From: Candidatus Vogelbacteria bacterium
GTDB taxonomy: Bacteria; Patescibacteriota; Minisyncoccia; Phycocordibacterales; XYD1-FULL-46-19
Assembly: GCA_016188295.1 (NCBI GenBank)
Contig: JACPIA010000011.1
Location: 3,993 to 67,992 of the forward strand
Length of the DNA stretch: 64,000 nt
Direction: 5' to 3'
This document shows, piece by piece, positions 15,381 to 63,400 of the stretch. The notes beneath the pieces were generated by a model that was not told the DNA's origin, searched no databases, and saw only the letters and a program-made list of their open reading frames with translations. How positions within the stretch are numbered: position 1 is the stretch's first letter; each line of letters opens with the position of its first letter. Both the position numbers and the translations under genes were made by a program.

Positions 15381-15430
15381 TACAGATCTGTTAATAAAAA
15401 GTGGATAATTGGGTATAACTAGTAAAACTA

Positions 15431-15458
15431 TTGAATTATTATTTTAGCTGTGTATAAT
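15431..15458 (+). promoter_or_regulatory. Sigma-70-like promoter of rpmH (TTGAAT, 16-nt spacer, extended -10 TGTATAAT)
   Basis: TTGAAT at 15431-15436. TGnTATAAT ends at 15458, only about 10 nt before the rpmH ATG, so the mRNA is essentially leaderless. A DnaA box GTGGATAA lies at 15401-15408 just upstream. Confidence 0.5.
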
Positions 15459-15468
15459 CAGATCTAGT

Positions 15469-15603
15469 ATGTCTATTACCTACCAACCCAAGAAGCGTAA
15501 ACGTAAAACTACCCACGGTTTTTTAGTTCGGTCTAAAAGTAAAACTGGTAAACAGGTTTTACTTCGTCGTCGCCGTAAGGGTCGAGTTAAGTTAACGGTG
15601 TAA
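15469..15603 (+). CDS. rpmH: 50S ribosomal protein L34
   Basis: 44 aa [44 protein letters not shown], a classic L34. It is shorter than the 60-aa cutoff so it is absent from the ORF track. Confidence 0.9.
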
Positions 15604-15605
15604 TT

Positions 15606-15947
15606 ATGGCCCAGTTAGGCCGTCTTTCTCGCGAGTTGATTACACAAGTACTATCTCAAGGGGTCTCAGTTAGATCACCTTATTTTTTAGTCAAAATCGC
15701 TAAATTGAATCAATTATTACCTAATACTACTGGTTTGGCGGTAATAGTACCAGCTAAGGTGTTTAAACAAGCGGTAGTCCGTAATCGGGTTAAACGACAA
15801 ATCAGAGGCTGTTTAATTAAATTAAAAAGTAAGTTAAAGCCTGGTTATGGAACAGTGTTTTTTGGCCAAGTTGGTATAATTAAAGTGTCTCCTTCAGTAT
15901 TATTTAAGGAAATAACTAAAGCTCTACATGATCTCATCACTCTTTAA
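15606..15947 (+). CDS. rnpA: Ribonuclease P protein component
   Basis: Small basic protein in the conserved rpmH-rnpA-yidC arrangement. Confidence 0.8.
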   Translation: MAQLGRLSRELITQVLSQGVSVRSPYFLVKIAKLNQLLPNTTGLAVIVPAKVFKQAVVRNRVKRQIRGCLIKLKSKLKPGYGTVFFGQVGIIKVSPSVLFKEITKALHDLITL

Positions 15948-16638
15948 TAGTCTTTTGGTTACTCCGTTTTATAATATATTAATTATTTTGACGGGCATAA
16001 TCCCAGGGGCGGATATTGGAGTAGCGATCGTTATTTTAACTATTTTAGTTAAAATTCTTCTTTTGCCGTTATATCAACAATCACTTAAAACTCAAAAAGC
16101 TTTAAAGAAGATTGAGCCGGAATTAACTCAAATCAAAGAGAAATATAAAGACAATAAAGTTGAGCAAACTCGTTTAATTTTAGAGTTATACCAAAAATAC
16201 CAAATTCATCCCCTTTCTAGTGTCTTAATGGTTTTTATCCAAATACCGATTATTTTAGCTTTGTTTTTTGTCTTTCGTGATAGTTTGACGACCACTGGAC
16301 ACACTCTTTACTTTTTTGTGATTAAACCGGAGATTATCAGTACTCACTTTTTAGGTCTAATTGATATCACCACTAAAAGTGTATGGTTTGCCGGTTTAAC
16401 CGCTTTAACCCAAGGGATTTATTTATGGCAAACAGTCCCTAAGCCAGAAAAAAAGGAGTTAGGTCAATCATGGCAAAAAGACTTTCAACACGGGATGTCG
16501 CTCCAAATGCGCTATGGCGCGCCAGTTTTAATCTTTTTTGTTAGTTGGGGTTTTCCAATCGCTGTTTCACTTTACTGGATTACTAGTAATATATTTGCCT
16601 CCGGTTTTGAGTTGATTAAAAAACAGTTTGAAGATTAG
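15928..16638 (+). CDS. yidC: Membrane protein insertase YidC (short form)
   Basis: Multi-TM protein following rnpA. Conserved YidC/Oxa1 core. Confidence 0.85.
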   Translation: MISSLFNSLLVTPFYNILIILTGIIPGADIGVAIVILTILVKILLLPLYQQSLKTQKALKKIEPELTQIKEKYKDNKVEQTRLILELYQKYQIHPLSSVLMVFIQIPIILALFFVFRDSLTTTGHTLYFFVIKPEIISTHFLGLIDITTKSVWFAGLTALTQGIYLWQTVPKPEKKELGQSWQKDFQHGMSLQMRYGAPVLIFFVSWGFPIAVSLYWITSNIFASGFELIKKQFED

Positions 16639-35605: not shown

Positions 35606-37981
35606 ATGGATCCATTTTTGTTGACGATCGGTGCCTTAGGTACGGTATTTTTAGTGTCAGGAGTGGCGCTCTTAGTCATGTATATTTTGCGTCAGCGTAA
35701 AATTGAGTCGCTCAATTTAAAATTATTATTAATTACGGTACCGCGCCCGGAGGAGAAAGAAGGCTCTAATCAACTCGATGCGATTGCTTCCACTGAGCAA
35801 TTGATGGTCGCTTTGGCCGGGATTAGCCGCTCGTTTGTCTTTGAGGTAGTGGTCCAAAATGCCGGAGAGGAAATTTTATTTTATTTAGCGGTACCGCGCT
35901 CCCAATTAACAAGTGCTAAAACACAAATCGAAGGGCTCTTCCCTCGGGCGGAGGTAACCGAGATTTCCGACTATACTATTTTCCATCCTGATGGTGGCAG
36001 TGCCGCGGCGCATTTAACTTTAACCGAAAATGAAGCTTTACCACTCCGGACTTATAAAGAAGCAGGTGTCGACACTTTTGCGGCAATTGTAAACACCTTA
36101 TCGCATCTGCGCGAGTCGGGCGATGGTGCCACTATCCAATTGGTGGTAACACCAACCGATAACAGTATCAAAAAAACTTTAGCGAAAATGGTGGAACAAT
36201 TAAAGCAGGGCAATTCCTTTTCCTCTCTGGTTAAAAAAGGTAATTTATCTTTAGAGGTGGTAGCTAAGGCGTTAATGAGTGATAAATCATCAACCAAAAA
36301 AGATAAGTCAGAAAATAAGATAGTTGATGAGGAGGCAGTCAAAGCGCTTAGTCTTAAAATGGCTAAACCCTTATTTAAGGTCAATATCCGGGTAATTACC
36401 GCCTCGGACACCACAGCCGTGGCTGAAGATTTACTGCTGGCCATTGCTGGGCAATTTAATCAATTTGCTTCACCCTATCGTAATAATTTTAAATTAGTTA
36501 AAGCTCGCCGGCCCAAAAAGTTACTCTATCAATATATCTTCCGCGAGTTTGATCCCAGCCAAGCTTTTACTTTAAATGCCGAGGAGTTGGCTAGTATTTT
36601 CCATTTACCTACCGCCACTACCGCCGGTCCGCGGATTAGTTGGCTTAATACTAAAGAGGCACCACCACCACCTAATTTACCGCGAACTGGTACTTTAATT
36701 GCCGAGAGTATTTTTAGGGGTGAGACTAAACCGGTTTATCTCTCGGATGCTGATCGCCGCCGCCACTTGTATTTGATTGGTCAGACCGGTACTGGTAAAT
36801 CGCTCTCGATGCTTAATATGATTAATCAGGATTTACTCAATGATAAGGGTTTATGTTTAATTGATCCGCATGGTGACCTAGTCGATGCCGTCCTAGAGCG
36901 TGTGCCTAAAAGTCGGATTGATGATGTGATTGTATTTAATCCCGGTGATCTGGCTCGACCACTAGGACTCAACATGCTTGAGTACAATTTTGACCGACCA
37001 GAGGAAAAAACTTTCATCGTCAACGAGATCCAATCGATTTTTAATCAGCTCTTTGATAAAGAGACAATGGGTCCGATGTTTGAGCAGTATATGAGGAATG
37101 CCCTCCTTTTATTAATGGAAGATGCCAATCCCGCCAAAGGTGGAGAGTCCGCCACTTTAATGGAAGTGTCGCGTTTATTCACCGACACCGAGTTTCGTAA
37201 TCGTAAATTGGCTCGGATCACTAATCCAAGCGTGATCGATTTTTGGACTAAAGAGGCAGTTAAGACCAGCGGGGAGCAAGGTTTGGCCAATATGACACCA
37301 TATATTACTTCAAAATTTGGTAATTTTGTGGCTAACGACTATATGCGGCCGATTATCGGTCAGCCGCAATCAGCGTTTAATTTCCGCACAGTCATGGATG
37401 AGGGTAAAATTTTGCTCGTCAATTTAGCTAAAGGTAAAATTGGCGATATTAACTCGGGGCTCTTGGGTATGATTATTACAGGTCGCCTGTTGTTAGCGGC
37501 ACTCTCTCGCTCCGATATTCCCGAAACTGAGCGCCGTGACTTTAACTTATATATTGATGAATTCCAAAACTATACCACTGACTCGATTTCGACCATCTTG
37601 TCGGAAGCGCGGAAATATCGACTTAATCTAACAATTGCTCATCAATTTATTGCCCAACTTAAAGACAATATCCGGGAATCAGTCTTTGGTAACGTTGGTT
37701 CGATTATCTCCTTTAGAGTTGGTACTCCTGATACGGAAGTATTACTTAAACAATTTGGCTCGGTATTTACCTCCCATGATTTAGTTAATAATGAGAATCG
37801 CCACGGCTTTGCTCGAATCTTAATTAATGGTGAACCAAGTATTCCTTTCTCGATCCAAGTGCCCTTGCCTAAACTCGGCTCGGTGGAAGTCAAAGATAAA
37901 CTTAAAGAACTCTCTCGCCTCACTTATGGCCGTGATTTAACAAGGATTGAAGGTGATATTTTAACTCGCCTGCGCTCATAG
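35606..37981 (+). CDS. Type IV coupling protein (VirD4/TraG/TrwB-like ATPase) with N-terminal TM
   Basis: N-terminal TM. Walker A LIGQTGTGKS, IDPHGD motif, Walker B LYIDEFQNY. 791 aa. Confidence 0.7.
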   Translation: MDPFLLTIGALGTVFLVSGVALLVMYILRQRKIESLNLKLLLITVPRPEEKEGSNQLDAIASTEQLMVALAGISRSFVFEVVVQNAGEEILFYLAVPRSQLTSAKTQIEGLFPRAEVTEISDYTIFHPDGGSAAAHLTLTENEALPLRTYKEAGVDTFAAIVNTLSHLRESGDGATIQLVVTPTDNSIKKTLAKMVEQLKQGNSFSSLVKKGNLSLEVVAKALMSDKSSTKKDKSENKIVDEEAVKALSLKMAKPLFKVNIRVITASDTTAVAEDLLLAIAGQFNQFASPYRNNFKLVKARRPKKLLYQYIFREFDPSQAFTLNAEELASIFHLPTATTAGPRISWLNTKEAPPPPNLPRTGTLIAESIFRGETKPVYLSDADRRRHLYLIGQTGTGKSLSMLNMINQDLLNDKGLCLIDPHGDLVDAVLERVPKSRIDDVIVFNPGDLARPLGLNMLEYNFDRPEEKTFIVNEIQSIFNQLFDKETMGPMFEQYMRNALLLLMEDANPAKGGESATLMEVSRLFTDTEFRNRKLARITNPSVIDFWTKEAVKTSGEQGLANMTPYITSKFGNFVANDYMRPIIGQPQSAFNFRTVMDEGKILLVNLAKGKIGDINSGLLGMIITGRLLLAALSRSDIPETERRDFNLYIDEFQNYTTDSISTILSEARKYRLNLTIAHQFIAQLKDNIRESVFGNVGSIISFRVGTPDTEVLLKQFGSVFTSHDLVNNENRHGFARILINGEPSIPFSIQVPLPKLGSVEVKDKLKELSRLTYGRDLTRIEGDILTRLRS

Positions 37982-38160: not shown

Positions 38161-39084
38161 ATGGAACGTTTTTTAGACTCAATTAGTTCAAATCAGTTAA
38201 TGGGGCGCTCCCAAACCGCTCAAACAATGTCTCTACTCCAAGCTATTTCCTCGCCTGATCCTAAAGTGGCAGTTGGCGGTGGCGATATTACGATTGTTAA
38301 TGATTCAGCCTTACTTCCCGACATTGGGCCATTAGGGACGATTGCTGATATTGTCGAGATTCCACCTTCCGATCAAATCAGTATTTATGTGGTGCGCAAG
38401 GGCGATACTCTCTTGGCGATTGCTAAAATGTTTAATGTTTCGGTTAACACCATTATGTGGGGCAATGATTTGGCTCGTGGGACTGCTCTTAAAGAAGGTC
38501 AGACCTTGACTATTTTGCCAATTTCCGGTATCCGCTACACTGTTAAGTCGGGTGATACTCTCGCCTCAATCGCGACCAAATACAAAGGCGACGCTGAAGA
38601 AATTGCTCAGTTTAATGGTCTAGATCATGGTGCCCGTTTAACGGTGGGTAATATTTTAATTGTGCCTAATGGTGAGATAGCGGTAGCGACACCGGTTAGA
38701 ACTACTACCGGCACTGTAGGCAGTAATTTGTCCACTTTTATCGGTAACTTGATGCGTCCAATCCGCGGTGGAATCAAAACTCAAGGGATACATGGTTTTA
38801 ATGGAGTAGATCTATCTAGTGCTTATGGAGCTGAGGTTTTTGCTGCTTCGGCTGGCACTGTGATTATTGCTCGAAATGGTGGTTGGAATGGTGGCTATGG
38901 TAGTTATGTGGTGGTCGATCATAGTAATGGAGTCCAAACTTTATATGCCCACCTAAGCAAAGTAATGGTGGCGCAAGGTCAACGAGTGATCCAAGGTCAA
39001 GTAGTGGGTGCCCTCGGCAATAGTGGTCGCTCTACCGGTCCTCATCTCCACTTTGAAGTTCGCGGTACTAAAAATCCGTTTTAA
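38161..39084 (+). CDS. LysM-LysM-M23 (LytM-family) peptidoglycan endopeptidase
   Basis: Two LysM repeats (YVVRKGDTLLAIAKMF, YTVKSGDTLASIATKY). M23 motifs (HxxxD region, HLHFEVR). An in-frame signal-peptide-like extension lies upstream of the ATG with no canonical start codon. Confidence 0.8.
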   Translation: MERFLDSISSNQLMGRSQTAQTMSLLQAISSPDPKVAVGGGDITIVNDSALLPDIGPLGTIADIVEIPPSDQISIYVVRKGDTLLAIAKMFNVSVNTIMWGNDLARGTALKEGQTLTILPISGIRYTVKSGDTLASIATKYKGDAEEIAQFNGLDHGARLTVGNILIVPNGEIAVATPVRTTTGTVGSNLSTFIGNLMRPIRGGIKTQGIHGFNGVDLSSAYGAEVFAASAGTVIIARNGGWNGGYGSYVVVDHSNGVQTLYAHLSKVMVAQGQRVIQGQVVGALGNSGRSTGPHLHFEVRGTKNPF

Positions 39085-50986: not shown

Positions 50987-51613
50987 ATGAAGAGCATGTG
51001 GAAGTTTGTGATTACAGGCGGACCGTGCGGTGGCAAGACCTCGGTGATCAAGGCACTGCAGTGCAAGTTTGCCGGCCAAGTCGCCTTTGTGGGCGAGATG
51101 GCTACTGCGCTACTTGATGTTTTTCCGCTACCACACAGAGATGTTGTGTTCAGTTCCGACTGGCTGTACCAATTCCAGTCAGTCGTCTACGCGGCGCAAG
51201 TCGGGGCCGAAGTGGCCTGGCTCGCCTCACCTTACGAGGTGATGATCTGCGACCGCGGCCGCCTCGACGGCGCCGCCTACCTCGGCAATAAAGAAGTTTT
51301 CTGCCGCTTGGTAGGCGAAAGCGAGTCAGCGATGTTGGCAGCTTATGACTGGGTGTTCCATCTCGAGTCATTAGCTGTCCAATGTCCCGACCGGTACTTG
51401 GCGCTCAAAGCGGGTAATTCTAACCGTTACGAGAGCGTGGAGGAGGCACAAAAAGTTGACACCGCCCTCAAAGAGGCCTGGTCGGGCCATGTTAACCGTC
51501 TTGTCTTATCCGGACAGGATGATCTGGAGTCAAAAATCCAACTCATCCGCCAGGTGATTGCTGACCATCTAGCTCAACCACAAGGAGATCTGACTAATGT
51601 CTGCCACTACTAA
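50987..51613 (+). CDS. P-loop NTPase, AAA_28 / NadR-kinase-like
   Basis: Walker A ITGGPCGGKTS. About 57% GC versus about 40% background. Strong SD GGGAGGGAG. Confidence 0.55.
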   Translation: MKSMWKFVITGGPCGGKTSVIKALQCKFAGQVAFVGEMATALLDVFPLPHRDVVFSSDWLYQFQSVVYAAQVGAEVAWLASPYEVMICDRGRLDGAAYLGNKEVFCRLVGESESAMLAAYDWVFHLESLAVQCPDRYLALKAGNSNRYESVEEAQKVDTALKEAWSGHVNRLVLSGQDDLESKIQLIRQVIADHLAQPQGDLTNVCHY

Positions 51614-52088
51614 AGTTGAGATTGAGCGCAAGTGGCTCTTGAGACAAGTACCACAAGACGAGATCCGCGACTATCGACAAGTACCTTGTGTCTACATTGA
51701 CCAAGCCTACTTGCTGACGGGTAAGCGTGAGCTCCGTCTCCGTCGCTACGGCAATGCCTTTTACCTGACCGAAAAGGTGGGTAGTGGCTTGTCGCGCCAA
51801 GAGAGCGAGATCGCCATCACTCGCGAGCACTACGAGGTACTCCTGCCTCAAGCCTCCAACTTGATCCGTAAGTATCGTTTTAAGATCAAGTTAGAGGGCG
51901 GTCTCACGCTCGAGATCGACCAATATCGCGACACGCTTGCTGGCCTGGTGGTGGCTGAGTGTGAGTTTACCACCCCCGAGAGCGCCGCCCTCTTTACCCC
52001 TCCCGCCTGGTTGCCGGTAATTAAGGAGGTTACCGGCGACATCGACTACTCTAATCAGTTTCTCTCCAAATACGGTCTGCCTACTTAG
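51597..52088 (+). CDS. CYTH-domain protein (triphosphate tunnel metalloenzyme)
   Basis: N-terminal ExExK motif (KVEIERKW). 163 aa. Overlaps the upstream gene by 17 nt. GC-rich. Confidence 0.6.
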   Translation: MSATTKVEIERKWLLRQVPQDEIRDYRQVPCVYIDQAYLLTGKRELRLRRYGNAFYLTEKVGSGLSRQESEIAITREHYEVLLPQASNLIRKYRFKIKLEGGLTLEIDQYRDTLAGLVVAECEFTTPESAALFTPPAWLPVIKEVTGDIDYSNQFLSKYGLPT

Positions 52089-53632: not shown

Positions 53633-53677
53633 GACCAACCCCCGATCCTCTTAAAGAGGATCGGGGGTTGGTCTTTT
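53633..53677 (+). terminator. Strong intrinsic terminator of the RRM protein gene
   Basis: 18-bp perfect stem GACCAACCCCCGATCCTC/GAGGATCGGGGGTTGGTC, loop TTAAA, then TTTT. Confidence 0.8.
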
Positions 53678-54224
53678 ATAATAAAATAAATAGAGGCCGA
53701 GCATTGTGGAGCGCTCGGCCTCGGGGTGGGGGATGGGGTAAAAATCAAGCTACTGCCAGATCTCGAGAAAGATCGGGATTATAACAACTACCACAAGCGA
53801 TTTCTCCGACATGGAGACAAAAGACACCTTGGCAGTCAGTTACCGCAAATTGTCCACCGCGTATGAGCAGAGTCAGATGGCCATCGCGGTACATTTCTGG
53901 TGGATACCTAAAGGTGACCACCAAATCGACACCTTGTCTCTTCTCTGTTGCTTCGATCCGACGACTGATTTTCCGATGAAGGATTCCTGTCGCTGCTTCG
54001 ATGATTCTTGTTGCCGTGTCCCTCCTTTTTCCATCAGTATCTTCAGTAGTAGCAACCCTGGTACCCATCCTGCTTTCTCCTTATACTAACGACCTTGGCA
54101 CTTCCCCCTTCTGTCGCTTACCATCAAAAGCTACTAAAGAGTACCAAGAAGCGCCTCCAATATCTAGTTTACGCTCTCTAAACCCTTTGTCAATATTGGT
54201 TTTTCGGAGTAAAGTGGATAGCGA

Positions 54225-54295
54225 GCGAGTGTGGTTCAATGGTAGAATAACTGCCTTCCAAGCAGTAGACATGGGTCCGATCCCCATCACTCGCA
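54225..54295 (+). tRNA. tRNA-Gly (anticodon TCC)
   Basis: Acceptor GCGAGTG/CACTCGC. Anticodon stem ACTGC/GCAGT with loop CTTCCAA. T-arm ATGGG-TCCGATC-CCCAT. Confidence 0.8.
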
Positions 54296-54463
54296 CACTT
54301 GCCATGTACCGCACGGCTCTTTTGATACCCAGATTGTCTGCACTACTGTGTCTAGTATATGGGGTACTTGCCAGGCGGGTTTAACAGAATTAGTTATCCA
54401 CTTTTTCTTTTGTGGAGTGTTGACAATACCCCCTCGGGGGTATACACTTATTATGGCAATCTT

Positions 54464-54868
54464 ATGAAATCCATACTTACACTAATTTTGATTGTTAGTT
54501 TTGCGGGAATAGCCGTCTTTGGCTTTACTATTTTTAGCCATAGTATGAGTGAATCAACCTCTGGTTGTGTTACTTCTCCCATAGATGGAACACCTTGTCC
54601 AACAAATATTGTTGCTATGACTTTGCAACACGTCTCTGCATTGCAAACGCTTACAACATCAGTAACATCATCTATCTCTAGTTGGATTTTATTACTTGCA
54701 TTTATACTCCTGGTTTCATTTTCGATATCTATATTTTATAAAAATTTACTCTTTCCAAAACTGGAATTATTGCATCAACGTTTACGGGATCTAGTATTTA
54801 ATTCTTTCTATAGTAAACAAAAAATTACCTCTTGGCTTTCATTGTTTGAGAATAGTCCAGCCTTCTAA
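54464..54868 (+). CDS. Small membrane protein with Cys residues (hypothetical); first gene of the low-GC island
   Basis: MKSILTLILIVSFAGIAVFG start. Two TM segments. CxxSPIDGTPC. Confidence 0.4.
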   Translation: MKSILTLILIVSFAGIAVFGFTIFSHSMSESTSGCVTSPIDGTPCPTNIVAMTLQHVSALQTLTTSVTSSISSWILLLAFILLVSFSISIFYKNLLFPKLELLHQRLRDLVFNSFYSKQKITSWLSLFENSPAF

Positions 54869-54977
54869 TATTGGCACGTATTAAGCGCAAGCTTTTTTCG
54901 TGCTATTTAATATCCTTTTATCGGGGTATTTTTGTTATTTTACTAACTTTAATCATTAAATCTATGTAAAAAATTAT

Positions 54978-55844
54978 ATGGAAACATTAGTAGGAACATC
55001 ATTAATAGCAGCGTTTGTGGCTGGAGTTGCCGCACTCTTTGCTCCTTGCTGTATTACAGTGCTTCTCCCGTCTTACTTGGGAAATATCTTCAGAGAGAAA
55101 TACAAAATCTTCTTTATGACTTTTGTCTTTTTCTTGGGAGTCGCAACAGTCTTTCTGCCAATCGGACTGGGGGTATCTTTCTTAGCACAAGCATTAAGTA
55201 AGTACCACAATATAATCTTTAGTGTCGGTGGAATCTTCTTACTTATACTAGGGATAATAATGCTTTTAGGCAAGAAGTTTTCTACTCCAACTTCTGTTCG
55301 AGATGAAATGAAAAAGCATGTGTCTTCAATTTACGTTCTAGGAATTTTCTCAGCAATAGCTACTACTTGCTGTGCTCCCGTATTGGCTGGAGTGCTTACA
55401 CTATCAATGGCAAGCGGGACAATTGCTTGGGGATTACTCTATACCTTGGCTTACATAATCGGGATGACACTGCCGTTGTTTATAATCGCGGCGTTTCTCG
55501 ACAAATTTAATCTAACTGAAAAGTTCACTGGAATAAAGAAAACTATCTCTATGAAAATTGGAGGTTTTAGTTGGCAGATTACTATTTCAGAGCTGATCTC
55601 TGGATTAATCTTTCTTCTAATGGGTGGTTATATAACTTACTTAGCTTTCAGTAGTAAATTATTTGTTCACTCAGATTATCAATTGGAAATGAATATATGG
55701 AATGCCAAGTTTTTGGGGGCAATTAATGGCTTTACGTCTTTGATCCCTGAATATATTTGGGCGTTCATCTTTATTGGAATAGTGTCGTATGTGTCTTATG
55801 TATTTATTAAACAATATAAAAAACAAAAATATGAGCAAAAATAA
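54978..55844 (+). CDS. DsbD/CcdA-family (ScsB-like) thiol-disulfide transporter membrane protein
   Basis: Polytopic. Paired Cys in TM helices (FAPCCITVLLP and TTCCAPVLAG). Confidence 0.45.
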   Translation: METLVGTSLIAAFVAGVAALFAPCCITVLLPSYLGNIFREKYKIFFMTFVFFLGVATVFLPIGLGVSFLAQALSKYHNIIFSVGGIFLLILGIIMLLGKKFSTPTSVRDEMKKHVSSIYVLGIFSAIATTCCAPVLAGVLTLSMASGTIAWGLLYTLAYIIGMTLPLFIIAAFLDKFNLTEKFTGIKKTISMKIGGFSWQITISELISGLIFLLMGGYITYLAFSSKLFVHSDYQLEMNIWNAKFLGAINGFTSLIPEYIWAFIFIGIVSYVSYVFIKQYKKQKYEQK

Positions 55845-56496
55845 TAATGATAAAAAATCCCCTGTAATTTCGATTGTTATCGTTTCAGTTGTGGTGTTGG
55901 GTTTGGGGTATTTTCTGTTCAAGAGTTCACCAGATAATTCTCAACAAAAGCAAAGTTCTAATCAGACTGCTCTTGTTGATAATATGCACGGAGGATCAGC
56001 TGGGGCTCCAACTAGCGAACAACTAAATTCACTTGTTGGAAAGCCTATGCCAGATTTTCAACTGTCAGATAAGGACGGGAAAGTATATAGTGTCGCTGAT
56101 TTGAAAGGTAAAGATACAGTTTTGTTCTTTAACGAAGGCCTTATGTGCTATCCAGCCTGTTGGAATCAGATAGCTGCCTTTGGTAGTGATCCAAGATTTA
56201 ACAATGATCAAATTCAAGCTATATCTGTCGTAGTTGATTCTGCAAAAGATTGGGAAACCGCAAAAGCTAAAATGCCAGAGCTTGTAAAGGCTACCACCAT
56301 GTTTGACACAGGGGCGGCTGTATCTCGACAGCTTGGTATGCTAACTACCACTTCATCAATGCATAGAGGTTCATTACCTGGTCATACCTATATGATTGTA
56401 GACAAGAATGGGGTTGTCAGATATGTACTTGATGATCCAAATATGGCGATAGCCAATGATATGCTCTTCGGTAAAATTGGAGAATTAAAATTATAA
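55831..56496 (+). CDS. Membrane-anchored thioredoxin-fold protein (redoxin/TlpA-AhpC-like)
   Basis: N-terminal TM, then GKPMPDFQLSDKDGKVYSVADLKGKDTVLFFNEGLMCYPAC redoxin-like motif. Start set at the ATG 55831. Confidence 0.5.
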   Translation: MSKNNNDKKSPVISIVIVSVVVLGLGYFLFKSSPDNSQQKQSSNQTALVDNMHGGSAGAPTSEQLNSLVGKPMPDFQLSDKDGKVYSVADLKGKDTVLFFNEGLMCYPACWNQIAAFGSDPRFNNDQIQAISVVVDSAKDWETAKAKMPELVKATTMFDTGAAVSRQLGMLTTTSSMHRGSLPGHTYMIVDKNGVVRYVLDDPNMAIANDMLFGKIGELKL

Positions 56497-56506
56497 AATA
56501 AATATT

Positions 56507-57031
56507 ATGAATAAACCAACAATGGAAGAACTTATTGCAAAAGTGGAAAAACTTAAATCTACAGGTGAATTGGATCTCTCAATAGAGGAAGATTTGAGTA
56601 TTGCTGTAATGAACCTTATTAGCCTAGAAGAGCATTTTTACTTTACTGCCGAGAAAACTGGGAATAATGAATACTTTGATTTATTAAATCAGACAAGGGA
56701 GATGAGGAAACAACTCTTGGAAAAAATGATTGATAAACATGAGGGTGAAACGTGGTGTATCGCTAAACATTTACTTGCTACGACTATGAGGTTAATGGAA
56801 GTCGGTACCAAACTTCAATCATCGGGTAAAAAAGAAGAAGCGCAAGATATGTTTAAAAAAGCTTATGAAATTTATTCGCTTTTTTGGGCATTACGATTGA
56901 AATTGATTGATGTATCTGATGTTAAAAGGGTTGAAGATAATCGATTAAATATTCACGACAAATCTGGTTCTGGTAAATCAATGACAAAGGAAGACATTAT
57001 TAGTAAATTAGTCGATTGCTGTAAGGAATAA
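56507..57031 (+). CDS. Hypothetical cytoplasmic protein
   Basis: 174-aa ORF. Helical. No motif recognized. Confidence 0.4.
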   Translation: MNKPTMEELIAKVEKLKSTGELDLSIEEDLSIAVMNLISLEEHFYFTAEKTGNNEYFDLLNQTREMRKQLLEKMIDKHEGETWCIAKHLLATTMRLMEVGTKLQSSGKKEEAQDMFKKAYEIYSLFWALRLKLIDVSDVKRVEDNRLNIHDKSGSGKSMTKEDIISKLVDCCKE

Positions 57032-57045
57032 CTAAATTAAAAAAA

Positions 57046-57966
57046 ATGGAAAACGAAAAACTTGAAGAAAAAATAATAAAAAAAGATAGTCCATATGCGA
57101 CACCAACAGCTATTATTATCGTTGGAGTTATGTTATCTCTATCTGTGTTTTATGGTTTACGTAATCCCTCAAAAGGAACACCTTTACAAAAGGCAGACAC
57201 ACAAGTTTCTGCGCTCGAAGAAGCTGTTTTGCCATCTAAGGGGGTAGTTTTACCTGCATCGTGGGGTAACCTTGGTGTGCAACTCGTAGACAGTGGAGCT
57301 ATTGATACTGATAAATTCAAAGCTATTTATGAACAGAGAGGAGCTTTCACTGATGAGTATAAAAACTTATTGCTTGGAAATAATAATGGTCAGATTAAAA
57401 TTACTAGAGAAAATTCAGGATATTATCTCAATCTATTTTGGGCTCTTGGTCTCGCAAATAAAAATCCTATTTTAGACACAGGCGAGATGGTAGATCTTGA
57501 ATATGGTGGAGCAGGAAACTTTGCATCTACTGGTGGTTGGACAATCGCAAAAGGTAAGCCAATGGACCACTATAGCAAGCATGCATTAATTACACTAACT
57601 CCAGAACAGCAAGCCCTAGTCGATAAAATATCACGTGGAATATATAGACCCTGTTGTGGCAATTCAGTTCATTTTCCAGACTGTAATCATGGGATGGCAA
57701 TACTCGGGCTCTTGGAGCTAATGGCTTCACAAGGTGCAAGCGAACAAGACATGTGGAAAACAGCGTTAATAGTTAATTCTTACTGGTTCCCCGACACTTA
57801 TCTTACAATAGCGACTTATATGAAAGAAAAAGGAATTGAATGGAAAAATGTAAATCCGCAAGAAATGTTAAGTGCCAGTCATTCTAGTGCCCAAGGTTAT
57901 GCAAAAATTGCATCACAAGTAATTAAACCAGCTGATTCACAAAGTGCAGGTGGATGTGGAATATAA
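57046..57966 (+). CDS. Membrane-anchored Cys/His-rich protein (hypothetical metal-binding)
   Basis: N-terminal TM. RPCCGNSVHFPDCNHGMA cluster. C-terminal GGCGI. Confidence 0.4.
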   Translation: MENEKLEEKIIKKDSPYATPTAIIIVGVMLSLSVFYGLRNPSKGTPLQKADTQVSALEEAVLPSKGVVLPASWGNLGVQLVDSGAIDTDKFKAIYEQRGAFTDEYKNLLLGNNNGQIKITRENSGYYLNLFWALGLANKNPILDTGEMVDLEYGGAGNFASTGGWTIAKGKPMDHYSKHALITLTPEQQALVDKISRGIYRPCCGNSVHFPDCNHGMAILGLLELMASQGASEQDMWKTALIVNSYWFPDTYLTIATYMKEKGIEWKNVNPQEMLSASHSSAQGYAKIASQVIKPADSQSAGGCGI

Positions 57967-58088
57967 ATACTAATAAAAATAATTATGAAAACAAAACACA
58001 AAGTATTTATAGAAACGAATAATGATAGAGCTCCTGAAAGCGCGGTAATTTAGAAGACATTGACAAATAGGGGATGGGGGTATAAAGT

Positions 58089-58400
58089 ATGGGAAAGGTC
58101 GAACTTATACTATTAACTTATAAAACTATGTTAGATCAAAAATTAAAGAAGAAAGCACTCCATAGAGCAAGAATAATTCGTGGACAGGTTGATGGCCTTG
58201 TAAAGGCCATAGAAGCAGAGAAATATTGTATTGACTTAATAACACAGTCGAGATCAGTGCAACTTTCTCTAAAAAGTATGGATAGAGTTCTTTTGGCAAA
58301 TCATCTTAGTAGTCATGTAAAGCATATGCTTAATGATACAAAACAAGAAAGTAAAGCAATTAAAGAACTCGTAGATTTGTACACATTATCAAACAAATAA
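58089..58400 (+). CDS. CsoR/RcnR/FrmR-family metal-sensing transcriptional repressor
   Basis: RIIRGQVDGLVKAIEAEKYCIDLITQSRSVQLSLKSMDRVLLANHLSSHV matches the DUF156/CsoR fold with Cys and His ligands. Confidence 0.7.
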   Translation: MGKVELILLTYKTMLDQKLKKKALHRARIIRGQVDGLVKAIEAEKYCIDLITQSRSVQLSLKSMDRVLLANHLSSHVKHMLNDTKQESKAIKELVDLYTLSNK

Positions 58401-58413
58401 AACAATAACAAAT

Positions 58414-58635
58414 ATGAAACTATCTAAATTAATGCATATCGCCAGTGTTGTCGTGGGTCTAGTTGGAGTGATTACGTTTCTGGGGTCCATTTTGGGTGGA
58501 TCAGATAATTTGGTTTTTGGAATTACAAAAATAGATGCTTTGATTTGTTCTGCGATTCTTATTCTAATCGCTACTTGGCTTCAAATTGCAACAATTCATC
58601 ACATGATGCTTGAGAAGCGTGGAGAAATAGTTTAA
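58414..58635 (+). CDS. Small membrane protein (73 aa)
   Basis: Two TM helices. Confidence 0.35.
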   Translation: MKLSKLMHIASVVVGLVGVITFLGSILGGSDNLVFGITKIDALICSAILILIATWLQIATIHHMMLEKRGEIV

Positions 58636-58653
58636 TAAATTAATTAAAAATAT

Positions 58654-58917
58654 ATGGAACTATCATTAAAAAAATACGGTTGGAAATGTGTTCTTGGGTC
58701 CGAAATAGCTTATGTTCTTTGTGTGTTGGGCGGATTTATACCGCTTCGTAGTACAGCAGGTCTTGAGCTTCATCACACACTCTTTGAGACATTGCCTGGT
58801 TTTACTTGGATAACTACTGGAAGTTTTATATTGGGCGCAGTCTATATGTTTATCTTTGCTTGGATTTTCGGTTTCTATTTCGTGTGGATGCACAATTCAA
58901 GTCTTATCAGTAAATAG
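58654..58917 (+). CDS. Small membrane protein (87 aa)
   Basis: Two to three TM helices. Confidence 0.35.
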   Translation: MELSLKKYGWKCVLGSEIAYVLCVLGGFIPLRSTAGLELHHTLFETLPGFTWITTGSFILGAVYMFIFAWIFGFYFVWMHNSSLISK

Positions 58918-58925
58918 TAAAATAT

Positions 58926-59219
58926 ATGCACAATCATGATGAAAAAGGTAATAAAAATATGATGTGGATGATGGCAATTTGTTGTGGATTGCCATTTCTT
59001 TTCATATTTGTCGTTGGTGGAGGCGGTAGGACTCTGGGTGTTTCAACATGGGTCGTATTTGGCGGAATAGCAGTAATGATATTAGCTTACTTCTTTATAA
59101 TGGGGAAACATAAAGGTAATGGTAATTCAGATGAAAAGGATAAACTTACCGGAGAAGAAGATAAAAACAAAGATAACAAGGACGATAAAAATCATTCTGG
59201 TCACGGATGTTGTCACTAA
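58926..59219 (+). CDS. Small membrane protein with C-terminal His/Cys metal-binding tail (HSGHGCCH)
   Basis: Two TM helices. K/D-rich tail ending HSGHGCCH. Confidence 0.4.
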   Translation: MHNHDEKGNKNMMWMMAICCGLPFLFIFVVGGGGRTLGVSTWVVFGGIAVMILAYFFIMGKHKGNGNSDEKDKLTGEEDKNKDNKDDKNHSGHGCCH

Positions 59220-59228
59220 AAAATCATT

Positions 59229-59870
59229 ATGGAAAACTCTTACGGCCTTTGGTCACTTGTCATTATAAATTCGCTGGTTTTCATTATCTTTGCGTTTAGT
59301 TTTACTAAACCAAAGACTTCTAGAGATTGGCGATCATTTGGTGGCTTTTCGGCATTTATTGTCGCGCTCTTTACGGAGATGTATGGTTTTCCACTTACAA
59401 TATATTTTTTTTCTGGTTGGCTCTCTTCAAAATTTCCTGATGTTGATTTCTTTGCACACAATTCTGGGCATCTTTTTGAAGACTTCTTTGGTTGGGGTGG
59501 TGATCCGCATTTTGGACCGTTCCATATTGCAAGTTATATTCTAATCATTTACGGTCTTGCACTTCTCTCTATGGCATGGAAGATTCTTTACAAAGCTCAA
59601 AATGAACACACTTTAGCTCTTACTGGACCTTATACTTATATTCGTCATCCGCAATATGTTGGTTTTATATTAATTATGTTTGGATTTTTCTTGCAATGGC
59701 CGACACTTCTAACTCTAGTCATGTTTCCAATTCTTGTTTGGATGTACACACGACTTGCTAAAAGCGAGGAGAAAGATTCTCAAAAAGAATTTGGAGAATT
59801 GTGGAATGAGTATGCAGAAAGAACCCCGGCTTTTATTCCACGACGAAAAAAATTAACAGCTAATTCTTAA
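59229..59870 (+). CDS. Isoprenylcysteine carboxyl methyltransferase / phospholipid methyltransferase family membrane protein
   Basis: YTYIRHPQYVGFILIMFGF and the C-terminal EE..L..FGE..Y motif typical of the ICMT/PEMT family. Confidence 0.65.
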   Translation: MENSYGLWSLVIINSLVFIIFAFSFTKPKTSRDWRSFGGFSAFIVALFTEMYGFPLTIYFFSGWLSSKFPDVDFFAHNSGHLFEDFFGWGGDPHFGPFHIASYILIIYGLALLSMAWKILYKAQNEHTLALTGPYTYIRHPQYVGFILIMFGFFLQWPTLLTLVMFPILVWMYTRLAKSEEKDSQKEFGELWNEYAERTPAFIPRRKKLTANS

Positions 59871-59957
59871 ATTATAAGGTGAAAATTATTTTTTCTGTTC
59901 AAATCATTGTAAACAACAGTTTGAGAAAGATCACGAAACTTATATCTTAAAATAGTT

Positions 59958-60851
59958 ATGAACAACAAAACAAAATCAATCTTATACGGAACACTAGCAA
60001 GCTCAATTCTACTCGGAGTTTATTTTACAGTACTCACTCTGGTTTCTGGTTGGAGTTTTACTCAAGAGCAGTTCGTAGATTATTGGTATTTTATTGTTAG
60101 TTTGGCTGTAGGTTTCGGAGTTCAGATCGCTTTGTATCAATACATTAAAAGTTTGGTGCATAGTGGAAAAGGTATGGGGAAAGTAGTTGGAGTATCTGGA
60201 ACAACTTCTACAGCAGCAATGATTTCTTGCTGTACTCATTATTTAGTTAATTTAGTACCTATTCTTGGGGTGACAGGACTGGCGACATTCGCCGCACAAT
60301 ATCAAGTTAAGTTATTTTGGGTGGGAATTTTCTTTAATATTGCCGGAGTCGTGTATATGATAAATAGAATTCTTAAATTTAAAAAAATTATGAATAATAA
60401 GACTTTAACAATACTCACATTAGTGCTTGCTTTCCTGGGAGGTTTTCTCTTTTTTTATCGTGGTGGTCAGACAAAAGAATTAGCCCCTGTTGCTAATCAA
60501 GCAAATCAGCAAACAATCACTAAACAAACTTGGAAAACGAAAACTGAAGAACAAGCTTATGTGACAGTGGTAGTTACCCCCATAGATCTATCACTAAATT
60601 CTAAAGAATGGAGATTTGATGTCGGCATGAATACTCATTCGGTTGAATTGGATCAAGATATGATAAAGATTGCTGTTCTCGTTGATGATCAAGGCAAAGA
60701 GTATAAACCAATTAGTTGGGAAGGACCAGTTGGAGGACACCACAGAGAGGGCATGTTAATATTTAATCAGATAATACCAAATCCGAAATCCGTGGAATTA
60801 AAAATTTCTAATATTGGAGATGTTGTCAGAAGTTTTGTTTGGCAACTTTAA
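59958..60851 (+). CDS. Hypothetical membrane protein
   Basis: 297 aa. Several TM helices plus a C-terminal beta-rich domain. Confidence 0.4.
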   Translation: MNNKTKSILYGTLASSILLGVYFTVLTLVSGWSFTQEQFVDYWYFIVSLAVGFGVQIALYQYIKSLVHSGKGMGKVVGVSGTTSTAAMISCCTHYLVNLVPILGVTGLATFAAQYQVKLFWVGIFFNIAGVVYMINRILKFKKIMNNKTLTILTLVLAFLGGFLFFYRGGQTKELAPVANQANQQTITKQTWKTKTEEQAYVTVVVTPIDLSLNSKEWRFDVGMNTHSVELDQDMIKIAVLVDDQGKEYKPISWEGPVGGHHREGMLIFNQIIPNPKSVELKISNIGDVVRSFVWQL

Positions 60852-60860
60852 ATAAAAAAT

Positions 60861-61991
60861 ATGGATACATTGGTAGACAATAATTATCATGATCACTTTG
60901 GAGACAAACCAAATAAGTGGATAGTTATTATTATTTTAATAATATCATTTGCGGGAATTATTTATTCTCTTTCAAAACCCGTTGGGAAAGATGTGCTTAG
61001 TGGAAGAGTTTTAAAAGTGTTATCTGAGAAAGAAATAACACAAGAAATAGGCGATAAAAGCGGAATTTTAAAAGAACAAGATCTCTTGGTGGAAATTACT
61101 GAAGGATCGGAGAGAAAAGAAATAAATGTTTTGAATGATTATGGACCGGTGGCAATAGGTGACAAAATATTTTTAAGCCAATCGTTGTTTGGAGACAGTG
61201 AGTGGAGTATGGCTAACATCTCAAGAACAAGAGATTTAACGATATTGTTTGCTTTCTTTATTATTCTAGTGATTTTAACTAGTGGCTGGAAGGGGTTTTA
61301 TTCGCTCGTAGGTTTACTTTTTACTTTTGCGGTTATCTTCATATTCATACTGCCGCAGATACTAAAAGGTGTTTCGCCTGTTTTCATTGGTATTAGTGGT
61401 GCCTCTTTAATTCTAATCCCAACACTTTATTTATCATATGGTTTTAATAAGAAATCAGTAGCCGCTTTTTTGGGTATAATTATCGCTTTGATTTTTGTTG
61501 GTTTTATCTCTAATTATTTTGTTAACTCTCTAAATTTTACTGGAGCGAACGAGGCATTTTTATACTTAAATATGGTGTCGACCAATTCAATTAATGTTAT
61601 GGGACTTTTAATAACTGGTATAATCATTGCTGCCGTTGGTGTATTAGATGACGTGGCAGCCATTCAATCGTCTGTAGTTTTTAGTCTTGCGAGGGCCAAT
61701 AAGGATTTACGTGGTTTGAGACTTTTCAAGGAAGCAATGCATGTAGGAAAAGATCATATCTCTGCCGTAGTTAATACGCTAGTTCTTGCTTACACTGGCG
61801 CATCTCTCCCAGTTATTCTTCTTTTATTTATTCAAAAAATGCCCTTAGACTACTCGATCAGTTTGGAAATTGTTGCCGAAGAAATTACCCGAACTTTAAT
61901 ATCATCTTCCGGACTTTTGTTGGCTGTTCCTTTGACAACAATAATAGCTGTATTTATGGTCGACAAAAAATATAATAATCTTAATAAATAA
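60861..61991 (+). CDS. YibE/F-like polytopic membrane protein
   Basis: N-terminal TM plus extracellular region, followed by about 7 TM helices, the architecture of the YibE/F family. Confidence 0.45.
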   Translation: MDTLVDNNYHDHFGDKPNKWIVIIILIISFAGIIYSLSKPVGKDVLSGRVLKVLSEKEITQEIGDKSGILKEQDLLVEITEGSERKEINVLNDYGPVAIGDKIFLSQSLFGDSEWSMANISRTRDLTILFAFFIILVILTSGWKGFYSLVGLLFTFAVIFIFILPQILKGVSPVFIGISGASLILIPTLYLSYGFNKKSVAAFLGIIIALIFVGFISNYFVNSLNFTGANEAFLYLNMVSTNSINVMGLLITGIIIAAVGVLDDVAAIQSSVVFSLARANKDLRGLRLFKEAMHVGKDHISAVVNTLVLAYTGASLPVILLLFIQKMPLDYSISLEIVAEEITRTLISSSGLLLAVPLTTIIAVFMVDKKYNNLNK

Positions 61992-61995
61992 AATC

Positions 61996-62301
61996 ATGGA
62001 ACATAATCACACAGCAAAAGAAAAAATAATATATACATGTGTAATGCATCCAGAAGTTATTTATGATAAGCCTGGTGTTTGTCCTAAATGTGGCATGACG
62101 CTTATCAAAGTGAATACACAAGAAAAAAATAATCATTCTGGGCATGTTATGGGTAATCCATCTAAAATGAGTTTTTGGGGAAAATTCAAAATGAGTATGT
62201 CTATGACTATGGGGATGGACCACACGGGTCTTGCTGAACGAGAAGTGGCTCGTCTTATGGAACTCGACATTAAAAATAAATTCTTTTCATCAGGGGATTA
62301 A
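61996..62301 (+). CDS. Heavy-metal-binding-domain protein (YTCxMHPEV...CPKCGM motif) with Met-rich copper-binding segment
   Basis: YTCVMHPEVIYDKPGVCPKCGMTL matches the HMBD consensus. MSMSMTMGMDH is a Met-rich Cu(I)-binding-like motif. Confidence 0.65.
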   Translation: MEHNHTAKEKIIYTCVMHPEVIYDKPGVCPKCGMTLIKVNTQEKNNHSGHVMGNPSKMSFWGKFKMSMSMTMGMDHTGLAEREVARLMELDIKNKFFSSGD

Positions 62302-63400
62302 GACGAGTGACTATCTCATAATTAATCGTATCACTCAAATAAGCGATATTATCGGTCGATATCTCTAATTTTCCACTTTTACCAATTAAAATGGCCTCCA
62401 TTCCAACGGCTACCTTTTTAATATCAGTGACATCAATACTAATCATATCCATTGAAACGCGACCAATAATTTTTGCTTCATTGCCATTAATCAATACTTT
62501 ACCAATACTAGAGAGAGATCTAGGAAATCCATGCCAATAACCGACCGGCAAAATAGCGATTTTTGAGGGGCGAGTGATGGTCTCGGTTAAATCATAACCA
62601 ATTTTACTTCCTTTTGGGAAAGTTTTAATTTGAGTGACGATTGTTTTCCAAGTTAAAACCGGGGCTAATTTGATTTTTTGCTTAAAAGCTTCTTTGATCT
62701 CCTTAGCTGGCCACAGTCCATAAAGTCCGATCCCTACCCTTACTAGATCAAAGTGACTCTGTGGAAAAATGATTGTGCCGGAGGTAGCCGCGGCATGTTT
62801 TATTGCTATTTTAAAACCGGCTGACTCTAACAGATCAATCACTTTTTTAAATTCTTCTATTTGATTTAGGGTAGTAGTGGGAAAAGCGGGATTTTTAGCT
62901 GAAGAAAAGTGAGTATAAACACCCTCAAGGGTTATTGATAATTTTTTTGATTTTAAAATTTTTATTACCGTTGGGATTTCCGAAACTAGAAAACCCTGAC
63001 GATGCATCCCGGTATCAATTTTAAGATGGATTTTTAATTTACCGTCGCTCTTATTGATTGCTGTTAAATTTTTGAGAGTGGGTAGGTCGGCAATGGTTAA
63101 AGTAATGTTGCTTTTAATTGCTACTTTAATTTTGTTAGGCAAGGTGTAACCTAAAACTAAAATTGGTTTTTTTAAACCAGCTTGTCTTAAGCTTTCCGCC
63201 TCAACAATCGAATCAACGCCAAGCCAATCAACTCCTAAATTTTCTAAAGCTCGAGAAAAATCAATCAAACTATGACCGTAAGCGTTGGATTTAACCACGG
63301 CCATTAGCAGACATTTTGGGCCGATCAAATGTCGAAACATTTGATAATTATTTTTTAACGCTATTTGACTGATTTCAATCCAGGTTCTTAAGTTCTGCAT
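62270..63400 (-). CDS. alr: Alanine racemase
   Basis: PLP-binding motif VVKSNAYGHS. Length and C-terminal domain are typical. Overlaps the HMBD gene end convergently. Confidence 0.9.
   Translation of the reverse strand: MQNLRTWIEISQIALKNNYQMFRHLIGPKCLLMAVVKSNAYGHSLIDFSRALENLGVDWLGVDSIVEAESLRQAGLKKPILVLGYTLPNKIKVAIKSNITLTIADLPTLKNLTAINKSDGKLKIHLKIDTGMHRQGFLVSEIPTVIKILKSKKLSITLEGVYTHFSSAKNPAFPTTTLNQIEEFKKVIDLLESAGFKIAIKHAAATSGTIIFPQSHFDLVRVGIGLYGLWPAKEIKEAFKQKIKLAPVLTWKTIVTQIKTFPKGSKIGYDLTETITRPSKIAILPVGYWHGFPRSLSSIGKVLINGNEAKIIGRVSMDMISIDVTDIKKVAVGMEAILIGKSGKLEISTDNIAYLSDTINYEIVTRLNPLMKRIYF

Follow-up and report, generated by a model that had tools for sequence, protein, structure and literature searches.

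We found that positions 54420-62287 of a 64,000-nucleotide stretch of DNA from the metagenome-assembled genome of a Candidatus Vogelbacteria bacterium (contig JACPIA010000011.1; hereafter the window) are probably a copy of a metal-stress cluster that is mosaic in content and exchanged horizontally, the metal most likely being copper. Clusters of this type are common in the Patescibacteria (Paceibacteria). The island, which lies between a tRNA-Gly(TCC) gene on its left and the alanine racemase gene alr on its right, is of a known general kind and carries an uncharacterised envelope module. A sequence-only reading of the window had proposed an acquired copper or metal stress island with uncharacterised membrane components, and that proposal is supported by CsoR-type operators, by the P1B-type ATPase genes that neighbour the same families elsewhere, by a related cluster beside cueR on a Burkholderia plasmid, and by sharp borders of DNA homology. 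What is added here is the operator, the exact borders, the loss of a pump, and a conserved core of abundant unclassified families that Burkholderia plasmids share.

Within 54464-62301 we counted 13 co-directional open reading frames (ORFs) on the plus strand, here called g1 to g5, csoR and g7 to g13, and not the fourteen genes first reported; a Logan contig that reproduces the whole locus (L001, run SRR12113422) also gave 13 in independent gene calls. Protein families were searched in Pfam with its curated cut-offs and in NCBIfam, and RNA genes with Rfam and ARAGORN. Every family that the sequence-only reading had named was confirmed by Pfam, in each case above the curated cut-off. NCBIfam gave nothing above cut-off for the island proteins, and neither library holds a family for g1, g4, g5, g7, g9 or the N-terminal half of g11.

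The borders of the island were set by DNA homology with islands of other Patescibacteria. For the comparison we used 34 genomic loci that encode a homolog of g5, which makes 35 loci with the window. The same families were found in these 34 loci, which come from Nomura-, Yanofsky-, Yonath-, Zambryski-, Sung- and Campbellbacteria and from bins labelled Saccharibacteria. The flanking genes differ in every locus, and gene order is mosaic, with modules swapped. Typically the order is csoR, a P1B ATPase gene, (a SHOCT gene), g1, a DUF1573 gene, a CcdA-like gene, g4 and g5; the ATPase gene is present in 27 of the 35 loci, often directly after csoR, and sister islands add YHS, DUF305, DUF302, HMBD and CDF genes and a cupredoxin-like gene. 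DNA identity to the window reaches 85-92% in L002 and 72-87% in L003 and L004. Homology to these three loci and to L023 starts at 54420-54423, which is the -35 box of the first promoter of the island (P1), while homology to L002, L003 and L004 ends sharply at 62287. The L002 sequence (JAGVGM010000243.1) is a 6.9-kb contig that consists of the island only and was binned in a Thermodesulfovibrionia metagenome-assembled genome, reflecting either a binning error or a transfer outside the Patescibacteria.

Island edges also tend to lie beside tRNA genes. A tRNA gene is found 150 nt or less from the island at nine edges in eight of the 35 loci, four of these genes being tRNA-Gly, and about 0.5 such edges would be expected from tRNA density. 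The two tRNA-Cys genes that flank the L035 island are different genes and do not represent a duplication. In the window, tRNA-Gly(TCC) (54225-54296, plus strand; ARAGORN, and 70.8 bits in Rfam) has its 3' end towards the island and ends 123 nt before P1. An island that abuts a tRNA 3' end, carries accessory stress cargo of mosaic content and has flanks that vary between genomes resembles the tRNA-associated genomic islands, and acquisition is supported by the differing flanks, the mosaic gene order and the tRNA-abutting edges.

The regulation of the island can be read from two sigma70-type promoters. P1 (TTGACA-17-TACACT; 54420-54448, plus strand) is the best promoter-like site of the region, and its spacer is a perfect 18-bp CsoR-box palindrome, ATACCCCCTCGGGGGTAT (54426-54443), that overlaps the -10 box and occurs once in the window, with 0.16 matches expected by chance. 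P2 (TTGACA-17-TAAAGT; 58060-58088, plus strand) lies directly upstream of csoR and has in its spacer a G-tract variant of the operator, ATAGGGGATGGGGGTAT (58067-58083), which is kept upstream of csoR in L002, L003, L004, L023 and L035. Given the position of P2, the start of csoR is the second ATG, at 58128. Two operons can be recognised in the sequence, with P1 serving g1 to g5 and P2 serving csoR to g13. The box TACCC-N(2-8)-GGGTA was found in 17 of the 34 related loci, whereas control loci totalling 866 kb had only four matches. Upstream sequence was read for 16 of the loci with the box, and in all of these the box is placed within a promoter of the TTGAC type that immediately precedes g1 or csoR. 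CsoR operators have been defined by experiment as a 21-nt consensus in streptomycetes, ATATACCCCTNAGGGGTATAT, with the general motif TAC-X9-GTA (PMC3902906), and as the box ATACCCCnnnGGGGTAT in Corynebacterium glutamicum (PMC5057107). The operators of the island match these published boxes and have the features of type-2 CsoR operators, namely a G/C-tract pseudopalindrome, TAC/GTA flanks and overlap with a promoter.

A further element is situated just upstream of the -35 box of P1, where the DnaA-box-like sequence TTATCCACT and an inverted partner (TCCAC-N10-GTGGA) span 54394-54416 on the plus strand. Of the 19 promoters that bear an operator, 11 have a TT(T/A)TCCACA-like motif at -22 to -35 relative to it (background 0.12 per 75 nt), the loci besides the window being L005, L006, L008, L015, L021, L023, L027 and L033. 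This motif could be an UP element, the site of a second regulator or a recombination site.

The product of csoR (58128-58400, plus strand; 90 amino acids from the second ATG) had been taken for a metal sensor of the CsoR/RcnR family (DUF156, PF02583), which was borne out by a Pfam Trns_repr_metal score of 66.3 bits (cut-off 22.8); its best NCBIfam match, below cut-off, is RicR. Alignment to the CsoR proteins of Bacillus subtilis and Mycobacterium tuberculosis and to Escherichia coli RcnR gives the ligand positions as Cys-His-His (YC...NHLSSH), which departs from the canonical x-C-H-C fingerprint (Cys36, His61 and Cys65 in M. tuberculosis numbering). The arrangement is similar to the CsoR-controlled cop operons of M. 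tuberculosis, B. subtilis, Streptomyces lividans and C. glutamicum (csoR-copZ-copA) and of Thermus thermophilus (copZ-csoR-copA), in that a DUF156 repressor has a site upstream of its own gene, the operator is a G/C-tract pseudopalindrome (TAC-N9/10-GTA) overlapping a promoter, and a P1B ATPase is the usual cargo in the sister islands. Unlike those operons, the island has no CopZ and this copy has no pump, the regulon consists mostly of an extracytoplasmic module of thiol-redox and Cys/His proteins and of small membrane proteins without family, and the RLxR motif of helix alpha-1 is altered to HRARI.

The ligand set Cys-His-His is shared with CsoR of T. thermophilus, which controls copZ-csoR-copA (PMC5057107, PMC10318464) and has low metal selectivity (PMC5057107). 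Sibling islands encode either a C-H-H or a C-H-C repressor with the same operator, and a C-H-H repressor is paired with CopA-type pumps of the CPC motif in L005, L017, L022, L023 and L035, four of these five pumps having an HMA domain. Because C-H-H repressors pair with CopA-type pumps and have this precedent in Thermus, and in view of the operator, we consider copper to be the most likely inducer. It is improbable that the regulator instead senses a divalent metal (Ni/Co or Zn/Cd) and that the island is a divalent-cation tolerance cluster. Such a role would agree with the Cys-His-His ligands, with the alignment of HLSSH to HLTEH of RcnR, with the poor selectivity of the Thermus protein, with the CDF transporter and the His-rich CPH- and CPD-motif ATPases of sister islands, and with the presence of an ICMT gene whose homolog CzcN comes from a Cd/Zn/Co cluster (PMC7563307). 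It agrees less well with the repressor itself, which has no counterpart of His3 in the H-C-H-H fingerprint of RcnR and scores 26.5 bits against the NCBIfam RcnR model (cut-off 138), or with its operator, which is a type-2 CsoR box and not of the RcnR type TACT-G6-N-AGTA (PMC3902906) and which also serves the C-H-C regulators of sibling islands. The company of CPC-motif pumps in five loci, a Met-rich motif in the ATPase remnant described below, and the position of the proteobacterial counterpart beside the Cu(I)-responsive cueR likewise argue for copper. We also considered a persulfide sensor (CstR), which was rejected as the second Cys is absent, and a mercury (mer-like) reading of the CC motifs, which was rejected as there is no MerA, MerR or MerP.

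The P1 operon encodes a thiol-redox pair. The product of g2 (54978-55844, plus strand) is a thiol-disulfide transporter of the CcdA type, with a Pfam DsbD_TM score of 42.7 bits (cut-off 27.1). Transporters of this family have an essential Cys in each of two TM helices, and in g2 the Cys occur as vicinal pairs in APCC and TTCCAP (TTCCAPVLAGV); the NCBIfam DsbD model gave 20 bits against a cut-off of 330. Overlapping it by 14 nt, g3 (55831-56496, plus strand) encodes a membrane-anchored AhpC/TSA-Redoxin protein (Pfam AhpC-TSA and Redoxin, 60 and 56 bits) with the invariant CxxxC motif FFNEGLMCYPACWNQ, CYPAC in the alignment. The sequence-only reading had seen an Scs-like copper-tolerance pair here. 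The families it implied, DsbD_TM and AhpC-TSA/Redoxin, are indeed present, and the pair recalls ScsABCD of Salmonella in combining a membrane electron transporter of the DsbD superfamily with a membrane-anchored partner of thioredoxin fold in a copper-stress context. The likeness is one of analogy and not of membership, because g2 is a bare CcdA, consisting of the transmembrane (TM) domain without the periplasmic domains of ScsB, and g3 is a CxxxC redoxin of the AhpC/TSA type in place of a CxxC Dsb-like protein; moreover, no equivalent of ScsA or ScsC is encoded, and regulation is by CsoR.

A CcdA protein together with a membrane-anchored thiol-disulfide oxidoreductase is the classical reducing branch of system II cytochrome c maturation. 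The g2-g3 pair has this layout, with weak similarity of the redoxin to ResA and TlpA in NCBIfam, and it could in principle serve cytochrome c maturation or general envelope folding unrelated to metals. We regard this as highly improbable: no CcsBA/ResBC, cytochrome or haem gene is nearby, the pair belongs to an operon with a CsoR-box promoter, the redoxin is AhpC/TSA-like with CxxxC, and in six loci the pair replaces a DUF1573 plus CcdA-like pair at the same position, so that the two modules appear interchangeable within metal islands.

The remaining products of the P1 operon are three proteins without family. The 134-residue product of g1 (54464-54868, plus strand), with two TM segments, is encoded in 24 of the 35 loci; in the alignment its C-x(8-10)-C(P) loop is invariant, and its C-terminal tail reads WLSLFENSPS. 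The soluble 174-residue product of g4 (56507-57031, plus strand) has 3422 homologs, none with a Pfam domain, and invariant EEH, EGETWC..KH and C-terminal DCC motifs. It is predicted by AlphaFold2 (AF2) to be a four-helix bundle (mean predicted local distance difference test score, pLDDT, 69), and a search of the Protein Data Bank (PDB) with the model returned generic helical bundles only (best E = 0.3). The third, g5 (57046-57966, plus strand), encodes a 306-residue Cys/His protein that is anchored at its N terminus, extracytoplasmic, and 100% identical to HYV76_03180.

The g5 family comprises more than 7000 homologs, and Pfam recognises no domain in any of them; identity is 58-94% among the listed hits and loci, which span several named candidate lineages, and a profile search gave 691 clusters at 50% identity. 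Its members number in the thousands in Patescibacteria, and distant ones are found on Burkholderia plasmids. No carriage of g5 by phage was found in IMG/VR. The invariant motifs are YRPCC.NS..FPDCNHG, HYS.H and FA.T.GW, followed by one to three C-terminal GCG repeats. The window protein ends after a single GGCGI (57940-57966), whereas the ...QQxGCG[IV] repeat is present two or three times at the C terminus of its relatives, and a C-terminal truncation of the window copy is therefore possible. An AF2 model of g5 (pLDDT 72, predicted template modelling score 0.72) found no fold match in the PDB with Foldseek (best E = 2.4). Fusions also occur in the family, either to an N-terminal membrane domain that contains GCPxCG and has no Pfam family, or to a small membrane protein with CC at its end.

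Downstream of csoR, all on the plus strand, the P2 operon continues with three small membrane proteins: g7 (58414-58635; 73 amino acids, found in seven loci), g8 (58654-58917; 87 amino acids, two TM segments, nine loci), which matches DUF5676 below cut-off (E = 3e-4), and g9 (58926-59219; 97 amino acids), which has CC in its first TM segment and a tail reading HSGHGCCH. The product of g10 (59229-59870) is a membrane methyltransferase of the isoprenylcysteine methyltransferase (ICMT) family, as first suggested, with 39.7 bits in Pfam ICMT (PF04140, cut-off 24); the NCBIfam isoprenylcysteine methyltransferase match was below cut-off. By family and context g10 may be likened to CzcN and NccN, ICMT-family membrane proteins of unassigned role in the czc and ncc metal-resistance clusters of Cupriavidus metallidurans (PMC7563307), which are likewise encoded within a metal determinant and differ in that their metal context is Cd/Zn/Co with efflux by resistance-nodulation-division (RND) systems. 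A fusion follows in g11 (59958-60851), of a 4-TM domain with SCCTHY and a DUF5643-like domain, the latter a sub-threshold match to the C-terminal half; the counterparts in L003 and L004 are two separate genes. The permease encoded by g12 (60861-61991) was correctly assigned to the YibE/F family (PF07907, 212.7 bits, cut-off 27.2). It is present only in the window and L009 among the 35 loci, it occupies the slot of a CDF transporter in sister islands (CDF is there in L003), and literature searches on YibE/F function gave nothing relevant.

The last gene of the island, g13 (61996-62301, plus strand), had been described as a protein with a heavy-metal-binding domain and a Met-rich motif. The domain (HMBD, 47.5 bits) is there, and the motifs YTCxMHP...CPKCGM and MSMSMTMGMDH, like the HSGHGCCH tail of g9, are present as quoted, but the gene does not encode a stand-alone protein. 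It aligns collinearly, with 67% identity, to residues 3-104 of the 747-residue P1B ATPase encoded in L003 and L004, and after about 100 codons it stops exactly where the first TM segment of the pump would begin. The last codons of g13 correspond, in reverse complement, to the 3' end of alr (62270-63400, minus strand, identified by Pfam and outside the island), which keeps its native C terminus as judged by comparison with L041. The right junction can be placed at 62280-62290, with ATPase homology ending at 62287 and the native alr C terminus on the other strand, and it is present in both assemblies (the window and Logan L001). To judge from the alignment, the junction is a deletion or recombination scar, and g13 is the orphaned 5' remnant of a P1B ATPase gene that kept the HMBD and the Met/His-rich N-terminal extension while the pump body was deleted. 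No other ATPase sequence was found in the 64-kb window by tblastn with seven ATPases. As the HMBD protein is a truncated ATPase fragment, the island is without its pump.

This copy is not a cop operon, as it has neither an intact P1B ATPase with DKTGT and a CPx core nor an HMA-type chaperone. It is not a Cus system (CusCFBA) either: the HMBD region scores 14.6 bits against NCBIfam CusB (cut-off 390), and there is no gene for an RND or outer-membrane factor (OMF) component. Four P1B ATPases of window-type islands have a CPD motif in the TM metal site (L003, 16645-18888; L004, 16060-18306; L019, 12097-14247; L034, 9134-11356), together with a Met/His-rich N terminus and, in three of the four, an HMBD. 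The TM metal site of P1B ATPases is usually CPC or CPH, and to our knowledge CPD is not the signature of any recognised P1B subgroup.

Loss of the pump raises the question of whether the island is a decaying, non-functional remnant, in which the ATPase has been deleted and the other genes confer no resistance and are on their way to loss. The gene fragment ending in a junction scar would fit such a history, as would the single GCG repeat of g5 and the many genes of L002-L004 that are absent from the window (DUF3105, SHOCT, DUF302/YHS, a 70-residue HMBD protein, DUF305, YHS and CDF, besides the pump body). We consider this somewhat unlikely, since the 12 other ORFs are intact with conserved motifs, both promoters and their operators are intact, several related loci also lack an ATPase inside the island, and the genome could have a pump gene beyond the 64 kb of the window.

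Evidence for the role of these families also comes from outside the Patescibacteria. Homologs of g5 with 31-33% identity are found on ten Burkholderia and Paraburkholderia plasmids. On the conjugative plasmid NZ_CP090638.1 of B. contaminans, five families of the island are encoded in one orientation downstream of cueR: a CcdA protein 33% identical to g2 over its full length, with the motif SCCAPVLAGV; an overlapping redoxin of the peroxiredoxin family, 27% identical to g3; an ICMT protein 42% identical to g10; an intact P1B ATPase with an HMBD and a CPC motif; and a distant g5 homolog (31%) with a twin-arginine (Tat) signal. The cluster, which is itself uncharacterised, includes in addition, in the same orientation, a Met-rich protein, a DUF2933 protein, a thioredoxin and a peroxiredoxin. 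It differs from the island in that the adjacent cueR gene, of the MerR type, appears to take the place of CsoR as regulator, in that the g5 homolog has a Tat signal in place of a membrane anchor and the pump is intact, and in that it has these thioredoxin and peroxiredoxin genes, together with SAM-methyltransferase and Sco/TlpA genes, as extras and no g1, g4 or YibE/F. The plasmid cluster therefore independently ties five families of the island to copper and places g5 outside the cytoplasm. On a plasmid of P. fungorum (NZ_CP099644.1, L121), the neighbours of a g5 homolog are P-type ATPases, HMA proteins, a regulator of the MerR family, a pair of thioredoxin and CcdA proteins, and merB/merA, which in this host links the g5 family with a wider soft-metal (mercury) region.

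The sequence-only reading had described the island as low in GC. The region 54360-62301 has a GC content of 35.2%, somewhat higher than the 33% or so initially given; outside it the window has 41.6%. GC at third codon positions is 0.23-0.35 in the island genes and mostly 0.30-0.50 elsewhere. The island is thus AT-richer than its surroundings, as had been stated, but the contrast is not exceptional, with 48 of 466 same-length windows outside the island (10%) equally or more AT-rich. The lowest GC in the window is in fact at 12681-16638 (12.7-16.6 kb), where the genes, among them dnaN (29.6%), dnaA (32.8%), rnpA and yidC, have 29.6-36.0% GC; the flanking alr has 35.7%. Since these core replication genes are more AT-rich than the island, low GC is weak evidence of acquisition, and we rejected it as proof. 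The presence of dnaN, dnaA, rnpA and yidC at 12681-16638 indicates that the region of the chromosomal replication origin probably lies there.

Several points weigh against our interpretation of the island as an exchanged copper-stress cluster. Its GC content falls inside the range of native genes. Among its 13 genes Pfam identified no integrase, recombinase or mobility gene, and there is neither a direct repeat of the tRNA-Gly 3' end nor a pair of terminal inverted repeats, so that in these respects, and in a composition that is not clearly foreign, it is unlike the tRNA-associated genomic islands. A close relative with an empty site was not found among 80 metagenome loci encoding alr relatives, none of which has the island beside alr; the empty site could not be demonstrated because the closest alr is only 76% identical, with no shared synteny. 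None of the 34 related islands has alr. Copper is proposed from context only, and the C-H-H repressor agrees with RcnR at three of four positions. Roles for g1, g4, g5, g7 to g9 and g11 are proposed from Cys/His motifs and neighbourhood, and the two structure models (g4 and g5) gave no informative fold match. Loss of the pump, finally, may mean that the island is decaying and not functional.

The points on composition and mobility would also be expected of a native, vertically inherited locus, whose low GC came from its membrane-protein content and from a heterogeneous genome composition, and the near-ubiquity of the gene families in Paceibacteria would suit that explanation too. Vertical inheritance is nevertheless quite unlikely. 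It would have to account for DNA homology to L002 that ends sharply at a promoter on one side and inside a truncated gene on the other, for flanks that are unrelated in all 34 other loci, for mosaic order with swapped modules, for the enrichment of island edges beside tRNA genes, and for the presence of five of the families on a proteobacterial conjugative plasmid.

Taking the island as an exchanged metal-stress cluster, we suggest the following mechanism. At low metal, the CsoR-family repressor would sit on both operators and block RNA polymerase; binding of Cu(I) or another soft metal through Cys-His-His would release it, and both operons, csoR included, would be induced. In the envelope module made from P1, the CcdA-type transporter would take up reducing equivalents on the cytoplasmic side and pass them to the anchored redoxin, which would keep the cysteines of g5 and g1 reduced. 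In this state g5 and g1 could bind or hand over Cu(I); alternatively, non-native disulfides induced by copper would be repaired. The soluble helical bundle of g4, with its C-terminal CC, would act on the cytoplasmic side. P2 would add the small membrane proteins with CC and His tails, the CzcN-like methyltransferase, g11 and the YibE/F permease. With the ATPase gone, any export would have to proceed through YibE/F or through a pump with its gene elsewhere in the genome. We tentatively propose, as a possibility that falls somewhat short of an even chance, that the core (g1, the CcdA-type protein with a redoxin or DUF1573 protein, g4 and g5, often with ICMT and a P1B pump) constitutes an undescribed cross-phylum copper-defence module, centred on g5, which would handle Cu(I) outside the cytoplasmic membrane by means of CcdA-reduced cysteines and which would be distinct from Cop, Cus, Pco and Scs.

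Other features of the window were noted in passing. To the left of the island, after the gene of an RRM protein, 53633-53673 is a strong candidate for an intrinsic terminator, with an inverted repeat of 20 bp that is perfect and has a T-run behind it. Between this terminator and tRNA-Gly lies a 550-nt stretch (53674-54224) with 44-52% GC in 250-nt windows, in which only unsupported minus-strand ORFs were called (107 and 74 amino acids) and which has no similarity in 119 other loci. A transposase remnant or a structured RNA was considered for this stretch and rejected, as there was no Pfam or NCBIfam match and no Rfam match beyond the terminator hairpin. A second compositional outlier near the island is formed by two overlapping genes (AAA_28 and CYTH domains) at 50987-52088, with 54% GC against a window mean of 41%. 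Genes resembling those of conjugation or secretion systems are located at 20267-22078, 23570-29433, 35606-37981, 38161-39084 and 5036-6784, and encode a TraG/VirB4-like ATPase, two proteins of about 985 amino acids (one without a Pfam match and one with DUF445 only), a VirD4/TraD-like coupling protein, a LysM-M23 peptidase and a PilB-type ATPase; they could belong to a type IV system or to an integrated element.

Nothing relevant was found when the literature was searched for earlier accounts of the cluster in Patescibacteria. The truncated pump offers an example of island decay, and it warns against annotating an HMBD fragment as a stand-alone metal-binding protein. Three abundant families (g1, g4 and g5) that have no match in the family libraries are tied to copper by their neighbourhood in two phyla, and genetics can be used directly to test what these families do, because cultivable Burkholderia have plasmids with homologous clusters. 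The island also shows a classical CsoR switch in the Patescibacteria whose operator is legible directly from the sequence. Although the genomes of these bacteria are tiny and very few stress systems are recognised in them, the cluster belongs to the accessory loci that they conserve and exchange the most.

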